64,000 nucleotides of DNA. Source: Chitinophagaceae bacterium. Lineage in GTDB: Bacteria; Bacteroidota; Bacteroidia; Chitinophagales; Chitinophagaceae. A program made the translations under genes and the position numbers. Below are positions 18 to 44,809 of this stretch, piece after piece. The stretch lies in NCBI GenBank assembly GCA_039921525.1, contig JBDSBP010000575.1, positions 4,712 to 68,711 on the forward strand, given 5' to 3'. Each line of letters begins with the position of its first letter. The stretch's first letter is position 1. The notes beneath the pieces are model-generated. The model was not told where the DNA came from, made no database searches, and was given only the letters and a program-made list of their open reading frames with translations.

Positions 18-181
18 GGCTATCAGCCGTCAGCTGTCAGCAATCGGCTTTCAGCTAGATCAACAGGTTTGAAAGCTTCATCCATTTTAAATTGAAGTAA
101 ATCTTCTCTCTTACTTACATGTTTAAACTAAAAGAAGTTTATCCACAACAGGTACAAACTGAAAGCTGACAGCTGATAGCC
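18..181. repeat. inverted pair of GATAGCY/RGCTATC heptamer arrays flanking a core of about 100 bp (element A)
   Basis: Left arm is GGCTATC AGCCGTC AGCTGTC AGCAATC GGCTTTC AGCTAGA (18-59). Right arm is GAAAGCT GACAGCT GATAGCC (161-181). Confidence 0.85.
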
Positions 182-182
182 G

Positions 183-1532
183 CTACTTGAACAACCTGAA
201 AATATCCAGCCCCAACGCATACGCCGTCAGTCCCAAAAGTAAAATCATTCCTGCCATCTGCGCGTACTCTATAAATTTATCACTGGGTTTGCGGCCGCTG
301 ATCATTTCATAAAGTGTGAATAAAGCATGACCACCATCCAACGCCGGGATCGGCAGGATATTCATCAAGGCCAACACCAGGGAAAAGAAAGCGGTTAACC
401 CCCAAAAAGTTTCCCAATCCCATTGTGGAGGAAACATGTTTCCAATGCTTATCACACTGCCCAGCGACTCAGAAGTCTTTACTTTTTTTGAGAAGATTAA
501 TTTCAGTTGCAGCCAGTATTCTTGTAACGTTTGAATGCTTTTATCGAACCCAGCAGGTATAGCCTCTAGAAATGTGTAATGAATGGTTTTAATGTTTACA
601 GGGGTGTCTTTTATAATAGGAAGAATACCAAGCGTTCCTTCATTTGATATAAGTGCTTTCTTACTCAGCGTATCGTTTCCCCTAACCACCGTCATAGCAA
701 CTTCCTTGTTTTTGTTCCTGGGCACTTCTCGCTGGAAACTACTATAAAATTTGGTATCTGTACCGTTAAAGGAAACGATCTTGTCATTTTTCACCAGCCC
801 GGCTTTGTCTGCCGGTGAACCTTTTACAACAGAATCTATGCCTTCAAATGGAAATCGAACCGAAATAAACCGGATCGCTTTATAACGGATCAGGTTACCC
901 GCAAAATCATCCGGAATAGGGATATCTAACTTTTGACCATCTCTGTCTACCTGGAATGATTTGGCATTTTTTAAAATTACTTCCAGAGGTATCCTTCTAA
1001 ATTTTTCTACGTATTTTCCATCTACACTTAATATCTGGTCACCATCTCTCAAGCCGATGCTTTGTGCCAGCGAGTCAGTAGCAATACCGTATTTTAATTG
1101 ATTGGTTGGTTCATAAGAATCTCCGTAGTACCATAAGATCATCGCATAAATAAAGAAGCCAAGTACCAGATTCACAAAAACACCCCCCACCATAATGATC
1201 AACCGCTGCCAGGCTGGTTTACTCCTGAACTCGTAAGGCTGAGGCGGCAATTTCATCGCGTCCTTATCCATGCTTTCATCTATCATTCCTGATATCTTCA
1301 CATAACCACCAAAGGGTATCCAGCCAAGGCCATATTCTGTTTCACCAATCTTTTTTTTCGCCAGGGAAAACCATGGGTTAAAGAAAAGATAAAACTTTTC
1401 TACCCTGCATTTAAAGAATTTCGCAGGTAAAAAATGCCCCATTTCATGTAACACTACAATAATCGAAAATGATAAAATGAACTCTGCGGCTTTAACACCT
1501 ACTTCTGACCAATTGATTAATAATAACATCAT
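183..1532 (-). CDS. rseP: RIP (site-2) zinc metalloprotease, M50 family
   Basis: 449-aa ORF. It has the HEMGHF zinc motif in the first TM helix, a central PDZ-like region and the C-terminal NILPIPALDGGH motif. It sits beside dxr, a common synteny. Confidence 0.9.
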   Translation of the reverse strand: MMLLLINWSEVGVKAAEFILSFSIIVVLHEMGHFLPAKFFKCRVEKFYLFFNPWFSLAKKKIGETEYGLGWIPFGGYVKISGMIDESMDKDAMKLPPQPYEFRSKPAWQRLIIMVGGVFVNLVLGFFIYAMILWYYGDSYEPTNQLKYGIATDSLAQSIGLRDGDQILSVDGKYVEKFRRIPLEVILKNAKSFQVDRDGQKLDIPIPDDFAGNLIRYKAIRFISVRFPFEGIDSVVKGSPADKAGLVKNDKIVSFNGTDTKFYSSFQREVPRNKNKEVAMTVVRGNDTLSKKALISNEGTLGILPIIKDTPVNIKTIHYTFLEAIPAGFDKSIQTLQEYWLQLKLIFSKKVKTSESLGSVISIGNMFPPQWDWETFWGLTAFFSLVLALMNILPIPALDGGHALFTLYEMISGRKPSDKFIEYAQMAGMILLLGLTAYALGLDIFRLFK

Positions 1533-6510: not shown

Positions 6511-6545
6511 ATTCGTAATTCGTAATTAATAATTAGTAATTAAAG
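6511..6545. repeat. tandem heptamer array, ATTCGTA family
   Basis: ATTCGTA ATTCGTA ATTAATA ATTAGTA ATTAAAG. Contains the argF' stop codon (6540-6542). Confidence 0.85.
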
Positions 6546-7493
6546 TGAGCGAAGTATTTCTGCCAGCACCGCCTGGGCGGCCCACGCCCGGTTACCTGCC
6601 TGTTGTGTAACCAGGCTATTCTTGCTATCCAGTACTTCATCACTCAGTTCCACGTTTCTTCTTACCGGCAGGCAGTGCATTACCCGGGCGTTGTTTGTTA
6701 ATTTAATTTTTTCTTCCGTTAACATCCATTCGGGGTCGGTAGTATATATCTTGCCGTAATCGTTGTAGGTGCTCCAGTTCTTTACATAAACATAATCGGC
6801 ATCCATCAACGCTGCATCCTGATCGTGGGTAATTGTTGCACCCTTGGTAAATTTTTCAGACAGTTCATATTCTTCCGGGTGTGTTATCACGAAATCAGAT
6901 TCTCCCCATGCATTGATCCATTGCGCAAATGAGTTGGCCACGCACTGTGGCAGCGGTTTCACATGCGGTGCCCAGGAGAGTACAATTTTGGGCTTCCGCT
7001 TTACTGCGAAGGTTTCTTTGATTGTAATAATATCTGTCAGGCTTTGTAACGGATGCAGTGTAGCGCTTTCCAGGCTTACTATAGGAACACCGGCAAATTG
7101 CAGGAAGGAATTCATCACCATTTCACTATAATCGTCTTCCCTGTTTTTTAGGGAGGGAAAAGTTCGGATGCAGAGTATATCAAAGTATTGACCCAGTACC
7201 GGCGCAGCATCTTTAACATGTTACACCGTATTACCACTCATGATTGCGCCTTCTTCAAACTCAAGGGCCCAACCTTCCTTATCAATATTAAACACAATGG
7301 TTTCCATTCCAAGATTCCTGGAAGCCACCTGTGTGCTTAAACGGGTACGCAAAGAAGGATTGAGAAATAATAACCCGATACGTTTATCACCGCCCAGCAT
7401 TCTGTCTGAAAAAGGATCACTCTTATAAGCCAGGGCTTTTTCAACCAGTGCATCTATATTATCAATGTCGTTAACCGAAATGAAATTTTTCAA
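6540..7493 (-). pseudogene. argF': N-succinyl/N-acetyl-ornithine carbamoyltransferase (argF') interrupted by one in-frame TAA at 7221-7223
   Basis: Track ORFs 7221..7493 and 6540..7121 share one frame (7493-7121=372). I translated the 99 nt between them codon by codon. They read HVKDAAPVLGQYFDILCIRTFPSLKNREDDYSE with no other stop. The joined 317-aa product carries SLRTRLS, HPLQ and HCLPVRR motifs. Confidence 0.8.
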
Positions 7494-7502
7494 TGGCGGA
7501 AG

Positions 7503-7850
7503 TTAATTGTTAATGGTTAATGATTAATGGTTAATGGTTAATGATTAATTGATTAACGGTTCGTATTATTATCTGTCTTGATTCATAAAAATATTATTCT
7601 CTTCACTTTAATCATTAAAGATTAATTGTCGTATAGCATTTAATAGGCAACACTTTTTTAGCATGTATTTGATCATTTGGAATATGTTTATTTTCTTTTA
7701 AATGCTCTCCCCCTTGCGGATTTGGGTGAATTAAAGAAAATAAATATACACGCGAACAGAGGCGAAAAAGTATTACCTATGTGCTACCATCTATCAATTA
7801 ACAATTAACAATTAACCATTAACCATTAACAATTAACCATTAACCATTAT
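7503..7850. repeat. 348-bp element: inverted 8-unit TTAATKG / CMATTAA heptamer arrays flanking a 236-bp core
   Basis: Arms at 7503-7558 and 7795-7850. Together they fill the argD-argF' intergenic spacer. Confidence 0.9.
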
Positions 7851-8973
7851 ACTTCAGCTCTTTCTCCAGTGCCTCTAAAAAAATATCGGCCTCTACTTTT
7901 GTAGTGTTCAGTGCCGGCAGCAAACGTATTACATTAGGTTTGGATTCACCCGTAAATATTTTATGCCTGAACAAAAGATTTTTCTTAACCTGTTTAAACT
8001 CATCAGGCAAATCAATGCCAATCATCAATCCCCTCCCTCTCACTTCCCTTATGTTTGGCAACTTCTTCAGTTCAGTCATTAAATAATTACCCGTTTCCAG
8101 GGCCTTTTGCATTAGCTTGTCCTGTTCAATTATTTCAAGGACAGCCAATGCGGCGGCACATGCGAGGTGATTGCCTCCAAAGGTAGTACCCAACATGTAA
8201 TGTTTGGGCTGAATTTTAGGAGCAATGGAAATACCAGCTACCGGGAAACCATTACCCATTCCCTTTGCCATTGTATAAATATCCGCATTGATACCACTAT
8301 AGTCGTGCGAATAGAATTTGCCACTTCTTCCATATCCACATTGTACGGAATCAGCAACAAATACTGTATTGTATAGATCACATAAATGACGGATCTTCCG
8401 CAAAAAAGAGTCAGTGGCCACATTTATACCACCCACACCCTGTATACCTTCTATAATAACAGCGGCAATTTCATATTGAGAAAACGCCTCTTCCAACGCT
8501 GCCTCATCATTAAACGGAAGAAATACTACATTATCAGTTTGATTAACCGGCGCCACCAGGGAAGGATTATCCGTTACCGCTACAGCCAGGGAAGTTCTTC
8601 CATGAAAAGCTTTGGTAAATGAAATAACCTTTTTCCTTCCATTATAAAAAGATGCAAGCTTCAAAGCATTTTCGGTGGCTTCGGCTCCTGAATTACATAA
8701 AAACAACTGGAAGTCTTCTTTCCCCGAAACAACTCCCAGTTTGTTCGCCAGCTCAACCTGTAGTGGAATATGAACGGAATTAGAATAAAACCCTACTTTA
8801 TGAAGCTGATCTTCCAGGCGTTTAACATAATGCGGGTGTGTATGACCGATAGAGATAACGGCATGCCCGCCGTAAAGGTCTAAATATTTTTCTCCTTTTT
8901 CATCCCAAACATAAGAACCTTGAGCCTTCTCTATTGTGATGTCGTTGATGGGATATACGTCGAATAGTTTCAT
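7840..8973 (-). CDS. argD: acetyl/succinyl-ornithine aminotransferase (class III PLP)
   Basis: Class III aminotransferase motifs and a PLP-lysine context (TMAKGMGNG); operon context. Confidence 0.9.
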   Translation of the reverse strand: MKLFDVYPINDITIEKAQGSYVWDEKGEKYLDLYGGHAVISIGHTHPHYVKRLEDQLHKVGFYSNSVHIPLQVELANKLGVVSGKEDFQLFLCNSGAEATENALKLASFYNGRKKVISFTKAFHGRTSLAVAVTDNPSLVAPVNQTDNVVFLPFNDEAALEEAFSQYEIAAVIIEGIQGVGGINVATDSFLRKIRHLCDLYNTVFVADSVQCGYGRSGKFYSHDYSGINADIYTMAKGMGNGFPVAGISIAPKIQPKHYMLGTTFGGNHLACAAALAVLEIIEQDKLMQKALETGNYLMTELKKLPNIREVRGRGLMIGIDLPDEFKQVKKNLLFRHKIFTGESKPNVIRLLPALNTTKVEADIFLEALEKELKYNG

Positions 8974-11420: not shown

Positions 11421-12125
11421 TTAAAAATTAAAAAAGTAATGTAAGACAGATTTCGGCCGACTCGCTCCTTTCGTCTGCTTCTTTAGAAAAAAACGTAGCA
11501 ACCTGCTTTGTTTAATTTTCATGAACCTTTCATATATCTTGGAATTTTCTTTGAATTCCTGTGCAGTTTCCACGGGTTCATAATGATCAGCAGGGTCGTA
11601 TAACATAGCAGTGCACATACAATTCTTCCTCTCCTTGCTCACGAGAATGTCGTAGTTCACACAACTCTTACAACCGGCCCAAAATTCATCATCGTCTGTA
11701 AGTTCAGAGTAAGTAACGGGCTCATAGCCCAGATCAGAATTTATTTTCATTACGGCGAGACCTGTGGTCAATCCGAAAATTTTTGCGTCTGGATATCTCT
11801 CTCGGGAGAGATCAAATATTCTTCTTTTAATCAGCTTGGCAATACCGCTTTTGCGATGGGCGGGAGAAACCACCAGTCCGCTGTTCGCCACAAACTGATC
11901 ATGTCCCCAGGCTTCTATATAACAAAATCCTACCCATTCTCCATCCCTGGTAACTGCTATTACTGCTTTCCCTTCCTCCATTTTCTGTTCCAGGTAAGCA
12001 GGCGATCGCTTAGCTATTCCAGTACCTCTTGCTTTTGCGGAAGATTCCATTTCGCTAGTGATGGTGACAGAATAATGTTTATCGTTGGATGATGCCACCC
12101 TAACAATAATGTTTTGATGTTCCAA
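11421..12125 (-). CDS. GNAT family acyltransferase, first gene of the arg operon (ArgA-like role)
   Basis: GNAT core (VVSPAHRKSGIAKLI) plus a Cys-rich C-terminal extension. It occupies the position a GNAT gene takes in Bacteroidota arg operons. The track start is a TTG codon, so the exact start is uncertain. Confidence 0.7.
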   Translation of the reverse strand: MEHQNIIVRVASSNDKHYSVTITSEMESSAKARGTGIAKRSPAYLEQKMEEGKAVIAVTRDGEWVGFCYIEAWGHDQFVANSGLVVSPAHRKSGIAKLIKRRIFDLSRERYPDAKIFGLTTGLAVMKINSDLGYEPVTYSELTDDDEFWAGCKSCVNYDILVSKERKNCMCTAMLYDPADHYEPVETAQEFKENSKIYERFMKIKQSRLLRFFLKKQTKGASRPKSVLHYFFNF

Positions 12126-12384
12126 TTTCTTAAAATTGAATAGATGAATAAAGAAGAAAGAAAGATAGGTGATCTTAAAAATTCAGGGGATTTTTTCACT
12201 GATAGGGGCAAGTTCTATTGCTCGTCCTATCAGCAACCACGTCGCGCTCGGGGGAGATTGGTACAGAAACCCTCACTATAAAACAAAATTCTTTCAGGGC
12301 CTGCCTGTAAGAATGTCGTATATGTTGACTTGTTTTCCAATTTTTTATCTTAAGTGTTTAATTGCTTAAACGTTTACCAATCTG

Positions 12385-12392
12385 CAAAAGTA
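12385..12392 (-). promoter_or_regulatory. candidate -7 box (TAnnTTTG on the minus strand) for the arg operon
   Basis: Plus-strand CAAAAGTA equals TACTTTTG on the minus strand. It lies about 260 nt upstream of the GNAT start, which would imply a long leader. Confidence 0.3.
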
Positions 12393-12444
12393 TATATTTT
12401 TATAATTATATTCCGGTAAAATATTTAATGCTATGTTAAGTTTG

Positions 12445-12602
12445 GGCTATCAGCCCTCTGCTATCAGCTTTCAGCTTCTACCACTTACGTATTATCTGCC
12501 TTTAATTAAATGTTTTCTTTCTGATTCACCAACCAAAATTCTTTTAACATAAATTTCAACGGTAGACGATAGCCGATAGCTGACAGCCGATAGCCGATAG
12601 CT
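12445..12602. repeat. inverted pair of heptamer arrays (GATAGCY family) flanking a core of about 88 bp (element B)
   Basis: Left arm is GGCTATC AGCCCTC TGCTATC AGCTTTC AGCTTCT (12445-12479). Right arm is GATAGCC GATAGCT GACAGCC GATAGCC GATAGCT (12568-12602) and overlaps the GH3 stop codon. Confidence 0.9.
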
Positions 12603-14097
12603 ACTTCTCCACAAACCTCATCAAATCATCTGCCACTACTCTATCATTACTCAATCGAGGAACTTTGTTCTGTCCTCCAAGCTTTCCAACGCTTTTCATG
12701 TAATCTATAAACCCACTTTTCCGCACCATCCTTATTTGAAGGGGTTGTAAAATATTACCGCCCACCAAATCGTCATAGTAAATATTTTTTTCACGAAGGT
12801 TGTTATCAACCTTTAACGCAAAGGCCCGTGCGTCAAGAGGTAATGTTTCAAATTCAACAAACCATTCATGGTAGCTCTTTTCATTATCCTGTGAAATCAT
12901 GGGTGCCACAGTAAATTCGGTTATCCGTAAACCCTCCTCCTGGGCCGCTTTCATAAGGCTATATTCAACTTCTTCTCCAATAACATGTTCCCCAAAGGCG
13001 GAAATAAAATGTTTGATCCGTCCTGTTACCATCAAACGGTAAGGATTAATGGAAATAAACTTCACCGTATCACCTACATTATATGCCCACAATCCCGCAT
13101 TGCTATTAATGATCAACGCATAATTCACACCTGGCTTTACATCCTTCAGCGAAAGCCGCGAAGGGTTGTCGTTAAAAATTTCAGCAGCAGGAACGAATTC
13201 AAAAAAGATTCCGCTATTGCTGTTCAACAACAGCCCTTCCCCATTTTGGGAATCCTGGAAAGCAAAGAAGCCTTCTGATGCCGGGTATGTTTCAATAGTA
13301 GCAACCCGTTTTCCAATGCTTTCGAACAGTTTTGCTTTATAGGGTTCAAAATTTACACCACCATGAACCAGTACGGAAAAATTAGGGAACAAGTCAATGA
13401 TTTTTTTCCCACTAACTTTCATTAAACGGTCAAAATACATTTGCACCCAGGGCGGAATGCCACTGATAAGGGTCATATCTTTATTAAGGGTCTCTTCCAC
13501 TATCTTATCCAGCTTGGTTTCCCAGTCATCAATGCAATTGGTTTCATAGCTGGGCATTTGATTGGTACGAAGGTATTTTGGTATGTGGTGATTAACAATG
13601 CCACTTAACCTTCCTGTTGGTATGCCCCCTACCCTTTCCAATTCTGGGGAGCCCGACAAAAAGATCATCTTACCATCGGCAAATTTATTGTTGCCGCTTT
13701 CAGCCATATAACATAATAAGGCATTGCGCGCGGTGTTAAGATGATTGGAAATAGAATCTTTGGTAATGGGAATATATTTTATTCCGCTTGTAGTGCCTGA
13801 AGTCTTTGCAAAATAAATAGGTTGGCCCTTCCAAAGTACATTATGCTTGCCTTCCTTTATCAGATTGATATAGGGTTTAAAACTCTCGTAGTCACGGATC
13901 TTTACAGCAGACTTATATTCATCATACGTTTTTACATCCTTATAATGATGGTCATTACCAAACGAGGTTTGAGACCCAACTTTCAGTAGCTCTTTAAATG
14001 TGGTTTCCTGATCTTCCACGGCAGTTAACATTCCCTTCCGAACCTGTTTGTAGATATACGAAGCGAAAGGCTTCGCAAAAAGTGATTTAAATTTCAT
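12601..14097 (-). CDS. GH3 auxin-responsive-promoter family protein (acyl-adenylate-forming fold)
   Basis: 498 aa. TSGTTSG-KYIP motif near residue 100, and overall resemblance to the bacterial GH3 family common in Bacteroidota. Confidence 0.85.
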   Translation of the reverse strand: MKFKSLFAKPFASYIYKQVRKGMLTAVEDQETTFKELLKVGSQTSFGNDHHYKDVKTYDEYKSAVKIRDYESFKPYINLIKEGKHNVLWKGQPIYFAKTSGTTSGIKYIPITKDSISNHLNTARNALLCYMAESGNNKFADGKMIFLSGSPELERVGGIPTGRLSGIVNHHIPKYLRTNQMPSYETNCIDDWETKLDKIVEETLNKDMTLISGIPPWVQMYFDRLMKVSGKKIIDLFPNFSVLVHGGVNFEPYKAKLFESIGKRVATIETYPASEGFFAFQDSQNGEGLLLNSNSGIFFEFVPAAEIFNDNPSRLSLKDVKPGVNYALIINSNAGLWAYNVGDTVKFISINPYRLMVTGRIKHFISAFGEHVIGEEVEYSLMKAAQEEGLRITEFTVAPMISQDNEKSYHEWFVEFETLPLDARAFALKVDNNLREKNIYYDDLVGGNILQPLQIRMVRKSGFIDYMKSVGKLGGQNKVPRLSNDRVVADDLMRFVEK

Positions 14098-15139: not shown

Positions 15140-15277
15140 ATGGCCACTGCAAAAAAAGCTGCTCCTAAAAAAGCCGCACCGAAGAAAGCTGCTGCGAAAG
15201 CTGCTCCTAAAAAAGCCGCCGCTAAAAAAGCTGCTCCTAAAAAAGCTGCTAAGAAAGCCGCTCCTAAAAAGAAATAA
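15140..15277 (+). CDS. 45-aa Lys/Ala/Pro-repeat protein (histone H1-like)
   Basis: Hand-translated; too short for the ORF track. Sequence is MATAKKAAPKKAAPKKAAAKAAPKKAAAKKAAPKKAAKKAAPKKK*. A strong hairpin with a T-run follows directly. Confidence 0.6.
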   Translation: MATAKKAAPKKAAPKKAAAKAAPKKAAAKKAAPKKAAKKAAPKKK

Positions 15278-15303
15278 AATTTCTTTAAGAACAGAAAATA
15301 ATA

Positions 15304-15334
15304 AGTCCCGGTTTATCCCGGGACTTTTTCTTTT
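15304..15334 (+). terminator. rho-independent terminator after the H1-like ORF
   Basis: AGTCCCGG (15304-15311) pairs perfectly with CCGGGACT (15318-15325). The loop is TTTATC and TTTTTCTTTT follows. Confidence 0.65.
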
Positions 15335-15357: not shown

Positions 15358-15550
15358 GGCTTTCAGCTATCAGCTATCAGCTATCAGCTGTAAATTGTTG
15401 GCTGTATTAAATTGTTATTCAGATATCAACTACCAGGCTTGAAGCATAATATCCTACTATCATTCTTCCCGATTTTTTTCACTGACACCGAAGGTATTGC
15501 CCTGCACTGATAGCTAAAAGCTGATAGCTGATAGCTGAAGGCTGAAAGCT
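15358..15550. repeat. inverted pair of heptamer arrays (GATAGCY family) flanking a core of about 115 bp (element C)
   Basis: Left arm is GGCTTTC AGCTATC x3 AGCTG (15358-15390). Right arm is GATAGCT AAAAGCT GATAGCT GATAGCT GAAGGCT GAAAGCT (15509-15550). Confidence 0.9.
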
Positions 15551-15560
15551 GAATTATACT

Positions 15561-15601: not shown

Positions 15602-17272
15602 ATGGACAATTATTTTATTGCCGATCAATTTTCTTTGCTTTCTAAAGTGTTGGATATCCACGGTGAAAATTCTTTTAAGTCAAAATCATACTCTATCGCG
15701 TCTTTTAATATTGAGAAATTACCGGTTCAACTTTCTGAAATTGAAAGAGAAAAAATCTTCTCTTATAAAGGTATCGGCGATACTATCGGCAAAAAGATTA
15801 TTGAAATTTTGGATACCGGTGAGTTGACACAGCTAAAAGAACTTATTTTTAAAACACCCCCCGGAGTGATGGAGATGTTGGTAATAAAAGGTATCGGTCC
15901 CAAAAAAATTTCCACCATATGGAAGGAAATGGAGGTTGAATCGTTGGGTGAATTGTTGTATGCCTGCAATGAAAACCGCTTGCTCTTATATAAAGGCTTC
16001 GGCGAAAAAACGCAGAAGAATGTGCAGGATGCTATTGAATTTTATATGAAGAGCCGGGGTAGTTATTTATATGCAGAAGCAGAAAAATCAGCACTGGAGA
16101 TCGACAACAAATTGAAAGAATCTTTTCCCCAATACCTGTCTGAATTAACCGGTGAATTCAAAAGACAATTGGAAATAATTACTATCCTGGAATGGGTCAC
16201 CACCATTCCCACAGCAACGCTTAGAGATTTTTTTGAGCCACTGGCATACAGTACGGAAATTGAGGAAGGCGATACGATCATATTCAAAGGCGCAGAAGGT
16301 ATAAAACTCAGGTTTAAAACAACCGAGGAGTTATCGTTCTTTACCACCCTGGTGGAAACCAGTTGCAGCGGTGATTTCCTGGAATTCATCCAACAAAATA
16401 AACTATCCGTTGAGCATGGAAAGATTACCTCAGAAGAAGAGGTGTTCAAAACATGGAATCAACCTTATGTTCCGGCCTTTATGCGGGAAAACCCGTCGAT
16501 TTTACAACACATGCCCATTCCCTCTGTTATTCAGTCTGGAGATATCAAAAGTATTATTCACTGCCATAGCACCTGGAGCGATGGTAATAGCAGTATTGAA
16601 GAATTGGCTAAAGCTTGCATTGCATCTAAAATGGAATACCTGGTTATGAGTGATCATAGCAAAAGTGCTTTTTATGCCAACGGTTTGCAGGAAGATCGTA
16701 TAAGGGAACAACAAAAATACATTGATGAATTAAATGCAACCCTAACACCCTTTAAAATTTTCAAAAGTATCGAATGCGATATTCTCAACGACGGGTCCCT
16801 TGATTACCCAGATAATATTCTGTCGACGTTTGACCTTGTGATAGCTTCCGTTCATTCCAATTTAAAAATGACAGAGGAAAAAGCAATGACCCGTTTACTC
16901 CGGGCTATTGAAAACCCGTACACCACCATCCTGGGACATATGACCGGCAGGCTCCTGTTAAGCAGAAACGGTTATCCGGTTAATCATAAAACAATCATTG
17001 AAGCTTGTGCGGCCAACAAGGTAGTGATAGAATTGAATGCCCATCCACGCAGGCTTGATATGGATTGGCGCTGGATTGATTATGCTATTGAAAAAGGAGT
17101 ATTAATCTCTATAGATCCGGACGCCCACTACATACATGGATTTGGTGATGTAAAGTATGGCGTACTATCGGCCCAGAAGGCCGGGTTAACAAAGGAAAAT
17201 AACCTGAGCAGTTTTAGCCTGGAAGCATTTGAAAATTACCTGGCCAGCATTCGAAAAGCAAAGGCTATTTAG
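15602..17272 (+). CDS. PolX-family protein with C-terminal PHP phosphoesterase domain
   Basis: N-terminal helix-hairpin-helix repeats (KGIGDTIGKKI, KGIGPKKI, KGFGEKT). C-terminal PHP motifs (HCHSTWSDG, SDHS, ASVHS, LGH, NAHP, DPDAH). Confidence 0.85.
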   Translation: MDNYFIADQFSLLSKVLDIHGENSFKSKSYSIASFNIEKLPVQLSEIEREKIFSYKGIGDTIGKKIIEILDTGELTQLKELIFKTPPGVMEMLVIKGIGPKKISTIWKEMEVESLGELLYACNENRLLLYKGFGEKTQKNVQDAIEFYMKSRGSYLYAEAEKSALEIDNKLKESFPQYLSELTGEFKRQLEIITILEWVTTIPTATLRDFFEPLAYSTEIEEGDTIIFKGAEGIKLRFKTTEELSFFTTLVETSCSGDFLEFIQQNKLSVEHGKITSEEEVFKTWNQPYVPAFMRENPSILQHMPIPSVIQSGDIKSIIHCHSTWSDGNSSIEELAKACIASKMEYLVMSDHSKSAFYANGLQEDRIREQQKYIDELNATLTPFKIFKSIECDILNDGSLDYPDNILSTFDLVIASVHSNLKMTEEKAMTRLLRAIENPYTTILGHMTGRLLLSRNGYPVNHKTIIEACAANKVVIELNAHPRRLDMDWRWIDYAIEKGVLISIDPDAHYIHGFGDVKYGVLSAQKAGLTKENNLSSFSLEAFENYLASIRKAKAI

Positions 17273-25053: not shown

Positions 25054-25070
25054 CTGATAGCTGACAGCTA
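25054..25070. repeat. short GATAGCT GACAGCT array overlapping a stop codon
   Basis: CTGATAGCTGACAGCTA. The CTA at 25068-25070 is the TAG stop of the minus-strand response regulator. Confidence 0.6.
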
Positions 25071-25727
25071 ATCAATAAGCCTGTTACGCATCCCATACAT
25101 AATTAAACCGGCAATGGTTTTGACACCTACTTTAGATTTCATATTCTGCCGTATAGTTTCAATTGTTCTGGGACTTAAAAACACCTGTTTTGATATTTCA
25201 TCGGTAGTTTTATCATCAGCGATCAATCGAAGGATCTTGACTTCCTTTTCAGAAAACTTTACGGGGTTTGGGTAAAATTGACGAACTGCCCGCTTATTCT
25301 GCAACTTGGCCAGAACAGCTTTATTTACCAGGTCGTTAAAATAAAAATCATTGTTTATACATGTTAAAATAGCCTGATAAATTTCTTCGGGATCGGTGGT
25401 TTTGGTGAGATAAGCGTTAGCCCCCATTTCCATCATTTTGGTTACCATTTCCTGGTCATCATACATGGTAAGTACAATGATCTTTAATTGCTCATGTGCT
25501 TTGCGCAGAATAGGAATAGCATTAATACCATCAATCGCGGGCATACGAATATCCATTAATAATACATCCGGACGTTCTACCAACATTTTCTCCATCAGGT
25601 CCCTTCCATCCTCAGCTTCCCATAAAATATTTATATACTTTCTTGCTTTAAGGGCCATCTTAATTCCATCCCGAAAAATTTTATGATCATCAGCTATAGC
25701 AATTTTTATGATTATTTCATCTCTCAT
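25068..25727 (-). CDS. response regulator, NarL/LuxR family (no adjacent kinase)
   Basis: REC domain (ADDH, LMDIRMP) plus LuxR HTH (TDEISKQVFLSPRTIETIR). Clear paralog of 28394..29044; both end in N-x-LID. Confidence 0.9.
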   Translation of the reverse strand: MRDEIIIKIAIADDHKIFRDGIKMALKARKYINILWEAEDGRDLMEKMLVERPDVLLMDIRMPAIDGINAIPILRKAHEQLKIIVLTMYDDQEMVTKMMEMGANAYLTKTTDPEEIYQAILTCINNDFYFNDLVNKAVLAKLQNKRAVRQFYPNPVKFSEKEVKILRLIADDKTTDEISKQVFLSPRTIETIRQNMKSKVGVKTIAGLIMYGMRNRLID

Positions 25728-32924: not shown

Positions 32925-34696
32925 GTCAGCTGGATTGGATAGTACTGGGAGTTTCATTGATTGGGATTGTTGCCTATGGCTTATATAAAAGCAAAACTAC
33001 CAGGGACCTTGATGGTTATTTTTTGAGTAACCGTACAATGCCCTGGTATTTGGTTTTATTAAGTATTATGGGAACGCAGGCCAGTGCAATAACTTTTCTT
33101 TCTGCTCCCGGTCAGGCATATACGGATGGAATGCGTTTCGTTCAATACTATTTTGGGCTGCCACTGGCAATGGTTTTGTTATGTATCACCTTCGTTCCCA
33201 TCTTCCATAAATTAAAAGTTTATACCGCTTACGAATACCTTGAAAACCGGTTCGATGTAAAAACCAGGACACTCACCTCTTTTCTTTTTTTATTACAACG
33301 TGGCCTTTCAACCGGTATCAGTATTTACGCACCCTCCATAATTCTTTCGTCTCTGTTCGGCTGGAATATTTTCTGGACGAATATTGTAATGGGTGGACTT
33401 CTGATTATTTATACCGTTAGTGGCGGCGCAAGAGCCGTTGCCTATACCCAACAATTGCAATTTGTTATCATCTTTGTAGGAATGGCTGTAACGGCCTATA
33501 TGGTGGTTCGCTTGCTACCCAACGGTATAGATTTTATTGATACGCTTAAAGTCAGTGGAAGATTGGGCAAATTAAACGTTATCACCACCGGCAATACAGA
33601 CAAAGGATTTAACTGGAATGACCGGTATAATATCTGGAGCGGTATTATCGGCGGATTCTTCCTGGCCTTGTCTTATTTCGGCACCGATCAAAGCCAGGTG
33701 GGACGCTACCTCACGGCAAAAAGTGTTTCAGAAAGCAGGATCGGTTTATTAATGAACGGATTGGTAAAGGTTCCCATGCAGTTTCTTATCCTGCTGGTGG
33801 GTGCTATGGTTTTCACCTTTTACCAGTTTAACCAGGCACCGCTTTTTTTTAATCAGACACAGGTGGCGATTGTTGAATCATCATCGTACAAAGATTCCCT
33901 CCATATTATTCAGCAACGATACTCCAGCTTATCTGCACAAAAAAAGAAGCTGGTGGAGCAATTTGTAGGTGATTATAAATCGGGCAGGAATACAGATCAA
34001 CCCGTAACTGCTTTAAAACAAGTAAATAAGGAAACGGAAAAACTTCGGAGCGACTTTAAGAATATTCTTGAAAAAGAAGATGTCAACGGGGATTCCAATG
34101 ACACCAATTATATTTTTCTACGTTTTGTAGTGGATTACATGCCGAAGGGGTTGGTGGGTCTTTTAATAGCGGTTATCTTCCTCGCTTCCTGGGGCAGCAT
34201 CGCAGCAGCGCTTAACTCGTTGGCTTCCACCACGGTTGTAGACATTCATAAAAAATTTGTGCAACTAGACTGCACGGAGGCGCAGGATTATTCCATATCC
34301 AAGTGGTATACTTTTGCCTGGGGCATCTTCAGCATTATCATAGCACAGTTTGCGGGCAATATGGGCAGCCTTATTGAAGCAGTGAATGTGCTCGGCTCTT
34401 TGTTTTACGGGGTAATACTGGGCATTTTTTTAGTAGCTTTTTATATGAAGAGCATCAGGGGAAACGCCGTATTTATCAGTGCAATACTGGTTGAAATTAT
34501 AATCATACTCTCCTTCGTCTGGCCATGGTTAACGAAAAAAATCCCCTCGGTAATTGATAAGATGCCTTCTTTTATTCAACACTTCATGGAAGGTATGGCG
34601 AACATCAGTTTTCTCTGGTTGAATGCCATTGGCGCTATTGGTATGATTGTGATGTCTTTTTTATTGCAATTGGTGTTGAAGAAAAGAACGAATTAA
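32921..34696 (+). CDS. sodium:solute symporter family transporter
   Basis: About 13 TM helices with an SSS-type N-terminus. The likely start is MSQLDWIVLG at 32921; the track start at 32849 lies inside the upstream mini-ORF. Confidence 0.85.
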   Translation: MSQLDWIVLGVSLIGIVAYGLYKSKTTRDLDGYFLSNRTMPWYLVLLSIMGTQASAITFLSAPGQAYTDGMRFVQYYFGLPLAMVLLCITFVPIFHKLKVYTAYEYLENRFDVKTRTLTSFLFLLQRGLSTGISIYAPSIILSSLFGWNIFWTNIVMGGLLIIYTVSGGARAVAYTQQLQFVIIFVGMAVTAYMVVRLLPNGIDFIDTLKVSGRLGKLNVITTGNTDKGFNWNDRYNIWSGIIGGFFLALSYFGTDQSQVGRYLTAKSVSESRIGLLMNGLVKVPMQFLILLVGAMVFTFYQFNQAPLFFNQTQVAIVESSSYKDSLHIIQQRYSSLSAQKKKLVEQFVGDYKSGRNTDQPVTALKQVNKETEKLRSDFKNILEKEDVNGDSNDTNYIFLRFVVDYMPKGLVGLLIAVIFLASWGSIAAALNSLASTTVVDIHKKFVQLDCTEAQDYSISKWYTFAWGIFSIIIAQFAGNMGSLIEAVNVLGSLFYGVILGIFLVAFYMKSIRGNAVFISAILVEIIIILSFVWPWLTKKIPSVIDKMPSFIQHFMEGMANISFLWLNAIGAIGMIVMSFLLQLVLKKRTN

Positions 34697-34812: not shown

Positions 34813-37413
34813 TTGAAAAAGAAAGTCTATCTCCTTTTTATAGCCATATTAGTCTTTAAGGCAGGTTTTACCCAATTACAAACAAAGGCTGATAAACCAT
34901 CCAATACCGGACGATTTTATGGCAGAATCATCGATGCGTCTGATAATAAAGGATTAGCATCCGGTTCTGTGCAATTGATTCTCAGGCAGGTTGACAAACA
35001 CACTCAAGCCACGAAAGATTCTCTTGTTGACGGTATGCTTACTTTGAAAAATGGCGATTTTAATTTTGAAAATGTTTCTCTATCGTCTGACCTGGTGTTA
35101 ATTGTAACAGCATTGGGCTTTAAGAAACATGAAGAGAAAATTAATGTAAGCCAGAAAGGTTCAAAAAAGCTGGGATTGGATATGGACCTTGGAAATATTA
35201 AGCTGGCTATTGATCCTAAATTATTGGAAACAGTAACGGTTACATCCGGTAAACCGCTGATGTCTCTCGGCATCGACAGGAAGGTATTTAATGTGGAAAA
35301 AAGTATTACTTCTGCCGGTGGAACTGCCGAAGATGTAATGCGCAGCGTTCCCTCACTCTCGGTAGACATGGATGGTAATGTTACGCTTCGCAACAGCTCT
35401 CCTCAATTATTTGTTGATGGCCGGCCAACCACGATGTCATTAGATCAAATTCCCGCGGACGCAATGGAAAGTGTGGAGATCATAACGAATCCATCTGCAA
35501 AGTTTGATGCATCGGGTGGCGGTGGTGGAATACTAAACATTGTTCTTAAAAAAAATAGAAAAGCCGGGTATAATGGATCATTAAAAACGGGTATTGATCA
35601 ACGTGGACGTTATAGCTTCGGGGGAGATATCAATGTTCGCCAGGGTAAAATAAATATGTTTGTCAGCACTAATTATCGCCAGCGTAAATCCATATCAACA
35701 GGTAAAACAGAGCGTTTAACCATATTGGAAAATGCCAATACCCAATTATATCAAACCGATAATACCATACAGGAAAGATCGAATTTTTTCCTGCGTGCAG
35801 GAATGGATTACTTAATGGATAACAGGAATACAATTACTGTATCGGGATATATTACCGATGGCCGATCCAACAGCAATTCAAGATCAGCCTTGCTTATTGA
35901 CACCATCAATGCAAACGGTAAAAATTCTTCTTTTAGAGAACGCTTGTCACTTCCGGGATCTGAAGCTAAAAATAATGGAGCTACTATAGGTTATAAACAC
36001 CTGTTTGCCAAGTCTGGCAAGGAATGGACCGCCGATATCACCTACACAGGAAGCAATAATACACAGGAAAATAATATCAGCACATCATCATATAATTTTG
36101 TTAACGGGCCATTGAGTAACCATTTCGCCCAGCAAATTAATGGAAGTGGAAACAACGCTAATATTACCTTTCAAACCGATTATGTAAATCCAATTACTAA
36201 AAATTCAAAGATTGAACTGGGAGCCCGCATGCAATTAAAAAGTGCAAAAAACTGGAATAACATCAGTTACCTTAATGAGTCCGGCATATATACCTATATA
36301 CCCCAGCTGTCTTCCAATTATGTGAACAAAAACAACGTGTTAGCAGGGTATGGCAGCTTTTCTAATAAGATCAAAAAGTTTGCTTACCAGCTTGGCCTGC
36401 GTATTGAGAGCTCTGAATCTAACGGAGAAGTTACAACCACGGGTATAAAAGGAAATGACACACTGCTTCATGTTGGTAATCATTTTCCTTTTAGTTTATT
36501 TCCCAGTATATTCCTGACGCAACAACTCGGCAATAGCCAGGAATTACAATTCAGCATCACCCGCAGAATAAACAGGCCTGATTTCTGGCAGTTGTTTCCA
36601 TTCACGGATTATTCCGATTCATTAAATCTGAACAGGGGCAATCCGGACCTTAGACCGGAATTCACATACTCTGCTGAATTAGCCTACGAAAAATCGTTCT
36701 CCGATAAAAATATTTTCCTGGCTTCTGCTTATTTTAAGTATACCGACCAGTTGATTACCCGTTTCCAGGAAGTAGAGGTTAGCCCGGTAACAGGTAAGGA
36801 AAACCTGGTTAGTACTTTTATTAACGCCAACTCGAGTTATACCAGTGGCCTGGAATTTATTTATCGCCAGTCGATGGCCAAGTGGTGGGAAATGACGAGT
36901 AACCTTAACCTGTTTAATACAAAGATTAACCTGGGCAATGCTGCTATCGTTGAACAGAAAAATATTTACAGCTGGTTTGCCAAGCTCAATAACACATTCA
37001 AACTGCCGAAAAACTTTTCATTTGAAGTGAGTAGCGAGTACAGTTCCAGGAGGGTGCTGCCACAGGGCAGTTCCAAGAACGGCGGCGGAAAAGATGGGAT
37101 AATCAACTTCGGGCAGCCAGCGTCTACTGCGCAGGGTTATATCAGGCCACGGTTAGAAGTAGATGCTGCGGTAAGATTCGATTTCCTTAAGAACAAGAAG
37201 GCTTCCCTCACATTACATGTTAGCGATGTTTTTAGAACAGATGCCAGTAATATCTATTCTGAATCTATATATTTCAGACAGGATTCTTATCGCCTTAAAG
37301 ATCCACAATACTTCCGGCTTCATTTCACGTGGCGTTTCGGTAAGTTTGATGCTTCTTTATTCAAGCGAAAAAATAATAAAATAGAAGAAAACCTGGATGA
37401 AAGCGAGAATTAA
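34813..37413 (+). CDS. TonB-dependent-receptor-like outer-membrane beta-barrel protein
   Basis: Signal peptide, N-terminal carboxypeptidase-regulatory-like segment, plug-like region (DVMRSVPSLSVD), long Tyr/Asn/Ser-rich beta-barrel. TTG start. Confidence 0.8.
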   Translation: MKKKVYLLFIAILVFKAGFTQLQTKADKPSNTGRFYGRIIDASDNKGLASGSVQLILRQVDKHTQATKDSLVDGMLTLKNGDFNFENVSLSSDLVLIVTALGFKKHEEKINVSQKGSKKLGLDMDLGNIKLAIDPKLLETVTVTSGKPLMSLGIDRKVFNVEKSITSAGGTAEDVMRSVPSLSVDMDGNVTLRNSSPQLFVDGRPTTMSLDQIPADAMESVEIITNPSAKFDASGGGGGILNIVLKKNRKAGYNGSLKTGIDQRGRYSFGGDINVRQGKINMFVSTNYRQRKSISTGKTERLTILENANTQLYQTDNTIQERSNFFLRAGMDYLMDNRNTITVSGYITDGRSNSNSRSALLIDTINANGKNSSFRERLSLPGSEAKNNGATIGYKHLFAKSGKEWTADITYTGSNNTQENNISTSSYNFVNGPLSNHFAQQINGSGNNANITFQTDYVNPITKNSKIELGARMQLKSAKNWNNISYLNESGIYTYIPQLSSNYVNKNNVLAGYGSFSNKIKKFAYQLGLRIESSESNGEVTTTGIKGNDTLLHVGNHFPFSLFPSIFLTQQLGNSQELQFSITRRINRPDFWQLFPFTDYSDSLNLNRGNPDLRPEFTYSAELAYEKSFSDKNIFLASAYFKYTDQLITRFQEVEVSPVTGKENLVSTFINANSSYTSGLEFIYRQSMAKWWEMTSNLNLFNTKINLGNAAIVEQKNIYSWFAKLNNTFKLPKNFSFEVSSEYSSRRVLPQGSSKNGGGKDGIINFGQPASTAQGYIRPRLEVDAAVRFDFLKNKKASLTLHVSDVFRTDASNIYSESIYFRQDSYRLKDPQYFRLHFTWRFGKFDASLFKRKNNKIEENLDESEN

Positions 37414-37512: not shown

Positions 37513-37625
37513 CTCTGTATAACAAATATATTACACAGAGTTACACGGAGAAGGCACGGAGTTTCACGGAGGGCCTCCGTGTATCTCCGTAAACCCTCTG
37601 TGTAACAAATGTATCTCGCAGAGTT
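37513..37625. repeat. cluster of nested CACGGAG/CACAGAG palindromes (REP-like)
   Basis: TTACACAGAG TTACACGGAG AAGGCACGGAG TTTCACGGAG GGC CTCCGTG TAT CTCCGTAA ACCCTCTGTGTAA; nested inverted repeats. Confidence 0.75.
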
Positions 37626-44252: not shown

Positions 44253-44377
44253 GCTGTCAGCTATCAGCTATCGGCTATCAGGAGGAAATTACTCACATTG
44301 ACCTGCTGAACGCTGATAGCCGATAGCCGATAGCCGATAGCTGACGGCCGATAGCTGACAGCCGATCGCTGATATCA
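44253..44377. repeat. inverted pair of heptamer arrays (GATAGCY family), 4 and 10 units, spacer of about 25 bp (element D)
   Basis: Left arm is GCTGTCA GCTATCA GCTATCG GCTATCA (44253-44280). Right arm is GAACGCT GATAGCC x3 GATAGCT GACGGCC GATAGCT GACAGCC GATCGCT GATATCA (44308-44377). Confidence 0.9.
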
Positions 44378-44416: not shown

Positions 44417-44773
44417 TTACAAATACACATCTTCTATAAAAAAGAAATCGGGGATATCATTATTTCCTACTGAAATGGATAATATATCATACTGAATTCT
44501 CTCCCATCCGGGAAACTGGTATAAAAATTCATCTGCAGCATTCATCATTTTTTCGAGTTTCTTTTGATCAACGCTTTCTTCGGGCAGCCCAAATCGCTGA
44601 CTGCGCCTCGTTTTAACCTCAATGAAATGTAGAATACCAGTTTTTGAAGCGATGATATCTATCTCATAATATGAATGTTTCCAATTAAGATGTAAAATAT
44701 TAAAAGCCCTCTCCTCCAGGAATGTTTTTGCCATTGCTTCACCAATTCTTCCCAGTTCGTTGTGCGATGCCAT
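44417..44773 (-). CDS. yraN: YraN-family endonuclease (UPF0102)
   Basis: GRIGEAMA..YEIDIIA..IHFIEVKTR motifs. The ATG at 44771-44773 is preferred over the track start. Confidence 0.8.
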   Translation of the reverse strand: MASHNELGRIGEAMAKTFLEERAFNILHLNWKHSYYEIDIIASKTGILHFIEVKTRRSQRFGLPEESVDQKKLEKMMNAADEFLYQFPGWERIQYDILSISVGNNDIPDFFFIEDVYL

Positions 44774-44809
44774 TTTTGTTTTATTTTGGAGGATAAATTC
44801 CAATTACGA

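Follow-up and report, generated by a model that had tools for sequence, protein, structure and literature searches.

The four heptamer-array elements of a 64,000-nucleotide stretch of DNA from a soil bacterium of the family Chitinophagaceae (contig JBDSBP010000575.1; hereafter the window) are, in the reading to which we give slightly better than even credence, the GCTATCR type of a broader group of STRR-like heptamer-array hairpins that occupy Chitinophagaceae spacers starting at stop codons, evolve in place and have a role at the level of the transcript. As read from the sequence, each has the same plan: a left (GCTATCR)n array, an unrelated core of 30-114 nt and a right (YGATAGC)n array. In the transcript, these elements probably act as 3′-end or intercistronic structures and not as canonical terminators. 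The arrays are essentially restricted to non-coding DNA and often start at a stop codon, and the period of 7 is specific to them. The inverted-array plan persists at one gene end whilst the unit, the core and the copy number change, and both the GCTATCR unit and the order of its arms recur across phyla.

An earlier note on this DNA had proposed four such sites, and all of them are present within essentially the boundaries it gave (Table 1). Its further point, that what recurs is the arrays in their inverted arrangement and that the cores are unrelated, is borne out, the four cores having no similarity to one another or to any fetched locus. The two arms of one element differ in unit number. 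Searched with a tolerance of at most 2 mismatches, the two-unit pattern GATAGCYGATAGC has 35 matches in the window, whereas shuffled sequences have 1.34 on average and never more than 6. Most arms are called by Tandem Repeats Finder as period-7 arrays of 3-9 copies; the degenerate left arm of site 2 is missing from its rows. Folded as RNA, sites 1-4 give z-scores of -5.1, -6.9, -5.7 and -6.7 in that order, each with a long interrupted stem of 25-35 bp around the arbitrary core, and none of 200 shuffles folds as well as the native elements. A search of the whole window against Rfam 15 at gathering thresholds matched none of its covariance models, a search for tRNA genes was empty, and no direct repeat or target-site duplication is present in the flanks of any of the four sites.

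Table 1. Positions and composition of the heptamer-array features in the window (forward-strand coordinates)
Feature	Positions	Units	Remarks
Site 1, first arm	18-56	GGCTATC AGCCGTC AGCTGTC AGCAATC GGCTTTC AGCT	GCTATCR type
Site 1, core	57-158		unique sequence, ~101 nt
Site 1, second arm	159-181	CT GAAAGCT GACAGCT GATAGCC	
Site 2, arm distal to GH3 (3′ arm in GH3 sense)	12445-12479	five RGCTATC units	partly degenerate
Site 2, core	12480-12567		88 nt, AT-rich; no conserved counterpart in relatives
Site 2, arm proximal to GH3 (5′ arm in GH3 sense)	12568-12602	five GATAGCY units	
Site 3, first arm	15358-15392	GGCTTTC, AGCTATC x3, AGCTGTA	
Site 3, core	15393-15506		114 nt; no conserved counterpart in relatives
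Site 3, second arm	15507-15553	~6.7 units, GATAGCT/GAAAGCT type	
Site 4, first arm	44253-44281	GCTGTCA GCTATCA GCTATCG GCTATCA	4 units
Site 4, core	44282-44311		30 nt
Site 4, second arm	44312-44376	nine GATAGCY-type units	
Unpaired two-unit array, GCTATCR family	25056-25068	GATAGCT GACAGC	
Same inverted-array plan with other arms	7500-7551 and 7788-7854	TTAATGG/CCATTAA	fills the argD-argF spacer

When one rule is applied to all periods, the window yields 21 arrays with a period of 7, and periods 8 and 9 are not represented. Their unit types include TTAATGG/TTAATTG, GAGGTAT and AATTACG in addition to GCTATCR. Twenty of the 21 lie in non-coding DNA, which makes up 16% of the window, and 11 abut a stop codon. 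Arrays of the GCTATCR family are nearly always paired in the window (8 of 9, the exception being the two-unit array of Table 1, which directly touches the stop of a response-regulator gene at 25068-25727 on the minus strand), and those of the other heptamer families are mostly single. AT-rich arrays themselves provide the stop codon of the upstream gene, as for argD, whose stop is supplied by a TTAATGG/CCATTAA array. In three genes, the TAA stop (34694-34696, 37411-37413 and 7840-7842) is the TAA of the first TTAATTG/TTAATGG unit. The argD-argF spacer of 346 nt (within 7494-7860, minus strand) forms a single hairpin of about -108 kcal/mol with a 236-nt core; one of its arms stops 7 nt short of the argF start codon, and the orthologous spacer of the relative L123 also has the TTAATGG/CCATTAA unit type.

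The positions of genes, both in the window and around the cross-phylum pairs described below, confirm that the sites lie at the 3′ ends of genes or in the spacers of tandem or converging pairs, and the enrichment at 3′ ends that the earlier note would have checked holds. Pfam domains and homologues, together with synteny, assign the window to an uncultured member of the Chitinophagaceae. Site 1 ends 1 nt from the stop codon of an RseP-like gene (CTA at 183-185, minus strand). The last unit of site 2 overlaps the stop codon (CTA at 12601-12603, minus strand) of a gene for a GH3-family protein, whose closest relatives have 85-86% identity, and the same site is positioned 320 nt upstream of the GNAT-arg operon. 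Site 3 lies downstream of the intrinsic terminator (15303-15326) of a histone-like gene, with its second arm 49 nt upstream of a PolX-like start at 15602. Site 4 is placed between converging genes, a CxxCxxCC gene whose stop is 30 nt before the first arm and a UPF0102 gene (44417-44803, minus strand) whose stop is 40 nt after the second. The histone-H1-like gene near site 3 (15152-15270) is composed of KKAAP-type repeats, and besides the terminator that follows it, which is kept in relatives, no other clean intrinsic terminator was found in the first 20 kb of the window.

The evolution of one such site was followed at the 3′ end of the GH3 gene, in syntenic contigs of relatives reached through GH3 homologues and a metagenome scan. 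The inverted-array plan recurs there, right after the GH3 stop, with other heptamers: the unit is CTATCGG in the window, GGTATGA in L121, L123 and L271 (the first unit in L121, CGATCAG, resembling that of the window), GTTATGA in L126 and GCGTTCA in L274, and there is none in L273, in which the spacer is ~120 nt shorter. In more distant Chitinophagaceae, the same gene end carries TGAGTTG/CAACTCA, ATACTGG/CCAGTAT, GCAATAG, TAGTTGA/TCAACTA or AAGGTTT arrays, and in some of them a plain terminator or nearly no spacer. Copy number, core and unit sequence thus vary across relatives, and the two arms vary in step: when a 5′ arm is compared with a reverse-complemented 3′ arm, 5.7 of 7 positions agree if the two belong to one element and 3.75 of 7 if the 3′ arm comes from another lineage. 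These orthologous hairpins fold strongly, with z-scores of -2.7 to -9.0. At site 2 and three orthologues, the sense RNA folds better than the antisense by 4-21 kcal/mol and has more G.U pairs (11 vs 2, 7 vs 2, 8 vs 1 and 5 vs 1), and this combination of sense stability and G.U excess indicates the transcript as the molecule that is folded. The sense signal is confined to site 2 and its orthologues. Site 3 shows the reverse, its antisense fold being the more stable, and in a noisier cross-phylum sample the sense strand folds better in just 9 of 17 pairs (p = 0.5), with no G.U sense bias.

At site 3, the window, L121 and L123 all have arrays, around cores that do not align, and the PolX-proximal arm is better conserved in the latter two whilst the other arm decays; L271, L273 and L274 have no arrays there. 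At site 4, the 99% strain L207 is identical to the window until its contig breaks inside the array, and in two 87% relatives (L208 and L209) an ordinary GC hairpin lies between conserved flanks, and neither presents a clean empty site. The relatives in which an element is absent or replaced (L273, L208 and L209) have flanking proteins of 82-87% identity, and the boundaries of the change are unclean. Overall, arrays are absent from 40 of 87 loci of relatives and, since they are missing in so many, any function must be dispensable or replaceable. Where two samples carry the same GH3 protein, they also carry the same element (L121 equals L122, and L271 equals L272 except for one core SNP). No difference in unit number between strains was seen in these two comparisons, and that with L207 ends inside the array; this identity implies that the arrays are not hypervariable on short time scales. 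The short-read contigs of L124, L125, L207 and L208 all end inside heptamer arrays. Short-read contigs of relatives often end in this way; the repeats thus interrupt assemblies, and metagenome bins probably contain too few of them.

Outside the family, a scan for runs of three perfect GATAGCY units, with each species represented by one genome, found at least 120 stretches, and the matches listed come from Gemmatimonadota, Acidobacteriota, Planctomycetota, Chloroflexota, Cyanobacteria (Moorena, Trichodesmium and Okeania), Bacteroidota, Vibrio and others. IMG/VR viral contigs contain 60 GATAGCY stretches, some contigs having many copies. When a pair is defined as two arrays of opposite orientation no more than 120 nt apart, GCTATCR precedes YGATAGC in 27 of 28 pairs among the matches listed from species genomes, in 27 of 29 pairs in viral contigs and in all four in the window. 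Reverse complementation leaves this order unchanged, and the rule is therefore true for both strands; the mirror order (YGATAGC...GCTATCR) would fold equally well. Among the matches listed, the neighbours of 51 pairs are in tandem (stop...start) for 24, converging for 5 and diverging for 3, and in 33 of 42 cases the outer edge of an arm is 0-9 nt away from a stop codon. An inverted partner is recognisable for only ~30% of arrays outside this genome, again among the matches listed, so that the prevalence of pairs over single arrays, which the earlier note had offered as a check, holds in the window but not beyond it. In two IMG/VR contigs (L265, 2639-2969; L266, 1850-2180), a cold-shock-protein gene is bracketed by GCTATCR/YGATAGC hairpins: one YGATAGC arm precedes its start by ~40 nt, and its TAG stop is where a GCTTTCA arm begins.

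The same genomes carry many further heptamer families, some likewise in inverted pairs. Of 24 pairs from these families, 20 begin with the arm richer in G, whereas GCTATCR elements have the opposite order in 19 of 20. Stop-codon content and G/C or purine skew were consequently rejected as sources of the polarity, given that GCTATCR runs opposite to the other families. Single arrays are also oriented with respect to the upstream stop codon, in a ratio of 26:13, a bias too weak to be the cause of the polarity of pairs. A strict search of the fetched loci found no inverted pairs of other members of the G-N-T-A-T-S-A superfamily, and the polarity of GGTATGA-like units rests on four orthologues of the GH3 site. 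Single-substitution links between unit types do occur: GGTATCA, the intermediate between the GGTATGA and GCTATCA families, is present in Danxiaibacter flavus, and arrays of Moorena mix GCTATCA and GTTATCA units. The D. flavus array (L014, 5034-5125) mixes GGTATCA, GGTTTCA and GGTATTA units.

Knowledge of tandem heptamer repeats goes back to 1990 for cyanobacteria and to 2007 for other phyla, and to our knowledge no function has been established for them to date. The classic STRR units are CCCCAGT, TTGGTCA and CAACAGT. Such repeats are recognised as head-to-tail runs of 7-nt units that are longer than chance would give and mainly non-coding, and the arrays described here show both properties. 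Cyanobacterial STRRs are 7-bp tandem repeats, of which hairpin-forming examples lie between hupS and hupL and upstream of hoxW, and the hupS-hupL hairpins have been proposed to act in transcript stability or translational coupling (PMC2670836). The present elements are like them in their tandem 7-bp units, intergenic or intercistronic location and capacity to form hairpins, and cyanobacteria also carry GCTATCR arrays; unlike STRR1-3, their unit is GCTATCR and their host a member of the Chitinophagaceae (Bacteroidota) and not a heterocystous cyanobacterium. A second comparison is with TAACTGA direct repeats, found in Beggiatoaceae, Cyanobacteria and a few Bacteroidetes (MacGregor 2015, PMC4679880). 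In the BOGUAY genome these form 169 direct-repeat sets and one indirect repeat, and they are mostly forward and a few nucleotides upstream of start codons (PMC4679880). When rotated, TAACTGA becomes TGATAAC, one transition from TGATAGC, and GTTATCA is its reverse-complement rotation. Both kinds of repeat are intergenic and scattered across phyla, and the orientation of TAACTGA to the downstream start matches that of the 3′ arm here. However, TAACTGA forms direct repeats before starts, in contrast to the inverted pairs extending from stops described here, which do not belong to that class.

The closest architecture is known from Geobacter metallireducens, in which tandem hepta-, octa- and nonanucleotide arrays (classes 1-3) are paired on opposite strands at a variable distance (Aklujkar 2009, PMC2700814) and were read as sites for unidentified global regulators (PMC2700814). 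As here, 3-5 short tandem units are paired on opposite strands in intergenic DNA; the Geobacter arrays lie, for instance, between proB and proA and are found in a single species of the genus. The match is one of architecture only, with a family that itself has no formal definition or defined function. The units differ (GTTGCTYN, TCTCCGTS and MTYCTGA), the Geobacter arrays are read as protein-binding sites, and PMC2700814 contains no comparative or polarity analysis. In the STRR literature, no description was found of a rule for the order of the arms, of arrays that touch stop codons or of a change of unit between orthologous sites; the wider literature on heptamer repeats that was searched likewise does not describe turnover at a single site, stop-codon abutment or the polarity rule, and a full-text search with two-unit strings of the GCTATCR repeat found no paper.

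In Proteobacteria, REP, BIME and REPIN sequences are inverted repeats at gene 3′ ends or within operons, where REP hairpins stabilise the upstream mRNA. A REP is a single imperfect palindrome of 20-40 nt; its copies in one genome are alike in sequence, and RAYT transposases spread them. The elements in the window share with REPs the inverted, hairpin-forming repeats at gene 3′ ends, but their arms are tandem heptamers and not one palindromic unit, and none of these REP traits was seen in the window. From MITEs they differ in having neither a target-site duplication nor shared internal sequence. Intrinsic terminators also place a hairpin just past the stop codon, and the GC hairpin found at site 4 in a relative is a conventional one; the present elements, in contrast, have stems of 25-35 bp, loops of 30-114 nt and no T tract. 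A T tract after the stem (at least 5 T in 8 nt) is found in only 6 of 114 tails across the datasets and at none of the four sites of the window, and a terminator scan of the window did not pick up the four sites. The earlier note had suggested long-hairpin terminators. The long hairpins stand (z-scores of -5.1 to -6.9), but the canonical intrinsic terminator was rejected because the T tract is missing, the loops are long and site 3 is itself preceded by a genuine terminator. CRISPR-like and attC-like elements were both rejected on anatomy, with housekeeping genes at the flanks in either case, the former on contiguous heptamers without spacers and the latter on the lack of an integron context.

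Under the favoured account of hairpins evolving in place, slipped-strand mispairing would lengthen and shorten the arrays. Since both arms change together, selection on pairing, templated copying from arm to arm, or both are required; the complementarity of the arms would be kept by selection on the folded transcript, by templated correction of one arm from the other (quasi-palindrome template switching), or by a combination of these. Unit types might interconvert by single substitutions that spread through both arms, along a series such as GTTATGA - GGTATGA - GGTATCA - GCTATCA - GTTATCA. With present sampling, substitution in place is indistinguishable from replacement of whole arrays, for example by ectopic conversion. 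From the predicted folds we infer a role of the hairpins at the RNA level, in which a hairpin in the mRNA could serve as a barrier to 3′ exonucleases, as a site for a double-strand RNase or as an insulator of neighbouring transcription or translation units. Between tandem genes it may also couple translation, because ribosomes that halt at the stop would melt the first arm.

The strict order of the arms does not follow from a hairpin model based on structure alone, and the polarity rule is the most promising lead that the data offer. An alternative that we consider unlikely is that the arrays are read directionally. A conserved protein or the translation machinery would recognise (GCTATCR)n after stops, (YGATAGC)n before starts, or both, on RNA or DNA, and the hairpin would be secondary; candidate readers would be an RNA binder of the cold-shock-domain or S1 type, or a nucleoid protein of the kind suggested for Geobacter. 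Such a reader would suit the nearly invariant arm order (27:1 in genomes among the matches listed, 27:2 in viral contigs and 4:0 in the window), the recurrence of an identical heptamer in many phyla and the retention of the PolX-proximal arm of site 3 in three relatives whilst the other arm decays. It also has parallels in the TAACTGA (TGATAAC) repeats, forward and just upstream of Beggiatoaceae starts, for which binding by S1, Csp or CsrA was proposed (PMC4679880), in the annotation of the Geobacter arrays as putative global-regulator sites (PMC2700814) and in the csp gene bracketed by hairpins in L265/L266. However, the unit differs between close relatives at one orthologous site, in both arms together, which a sequence-specific binder would not tolerate; many unrelated heptamer families follow the same plan within one genome; and no candidate protein was identified. 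The protein-bound array that the earlier note had considered is thus weakened by unit turnover at a single site and by the many unit types per genome, and it retains the strict polarity and the cross-phylum recurrence of the heptamer in its favour. A more far-reaching version, to which we give less credence still, would treat the GCTATCR/YGATAGC hairpins and their one-substitution relatives, including TAACTGA, as gene punctuation used across phyla, with (GCTATCR)n at the stop and (YGATAGC)n facing the next gene, the polarity arising from a directional reader (the ribosome, a cold-shock-type protein or an RNase) or from a new kind of selfish DNA that spreads and is homogenised by fold-back copying and not by transposition.

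It is also rather improbable, in our view, that the arrays are a by-product without function, in which slippage-prone heptamers seeded at ordinary hairpins would expand, quasi-palindrome template switching would keep them symmetrical and selection would only halt the expansion at coding or regulatory boundaries. Several features are as this would predict: the patchiness among relatives (40 of 87 loci without an array, L273 empty at GH3, and L271, L273 and L274 empty at site 3), the ordinary GC hairpin in the same place at site 4 in relatives, the free evolution of the cores, and arrays that stop exactly at stop codons or, when AT-rich, supply them. An excess of heptamers has, moreover, been ascribed to polymerase slippage (Mrazek 2007, as reported in PMC4679880). 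The sense-strand G.U bias in the four site 2 orthologues argues against a by-product, however, as do the strict arm order, the recurrence of the inverted-array plan at one gene end in many lineages and the stability of arrays between samples with the same protein. The remaining suggestion of the earlier note, a family of non-autonomous mobile elements (MITE- or REPIN-like) with the heptamer arrays as terminal inverted repeats around arbitrary cargo, appears highly improbable. The arms keep a fixed orientation to the ends of the element, as terminal inverted repeats do, the arrays are present across phyla and in viral contigs, some with many copies, and L273 lacks the element at the GH3 site, with its spacer shortened by ~120 nt. 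Yet target-site duplications are absent at all four sites, each core is unique, the arms are unequal in unit number and, in relatives, the gene end in question is taken by other unit types; the conserved flanks of site 4 enclose a different hairpin rather than a clean gap, and no transposase is linked to the elements in the 64-kb window.

The facts that the window and its relatives add are the maintenance of the plan at one gene end through turnover of the unit in both arms, the near-absolute arm order of GCTATCR elements in many phyla, and the usual start of these elements a few nt from a stop codon without a T tract. Two-arm unit turnover, arm order and stop-codon placement are also the properties that separate structure-based from sequence-based models. 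In practical terms, annotation pipelines should label heptamer arrays neither as mobile elements nor as terminators.

The neighbourhood of the arginine operon shows some further features. Upstream of the GNAT-argG-argC-argD-argF-argB-argE-argH operon lies a non-coding block of ~190 nt (12130-12330, minus strand), which contains the stem GCTGATAGG...CCCCTATCAGTG and is nearly invariant in five aligned sequences (the window and four loci from three relatives), next to the variable hairpin element. The block may be the promoter plus leader or the operator of the arginine operon; a search of 12100-12460 against Rfam at permissive thresholds gave no matches. The argF gene itself (ornithine-carbamoyltransferase-like; 6540-7493, minus strand) has an in-frame stop at codon 91 (GNTV*HVKD), which could reflect a pseudogene, an assembly error or recoding; the argF-like protein of relatives is uninterrupted, at 317-318 aa. 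Elsewhere in the window, a long imperfect palindrome lies between converging genes at 37513-37623, with 33-nt arms that are 76% complementary; its units are of the CACGGAG/CTCCGTG type, ~10 nt in length, and resemble the 'class 2' TCTCCGTS unit of G. metallireducens (PMC2700814).
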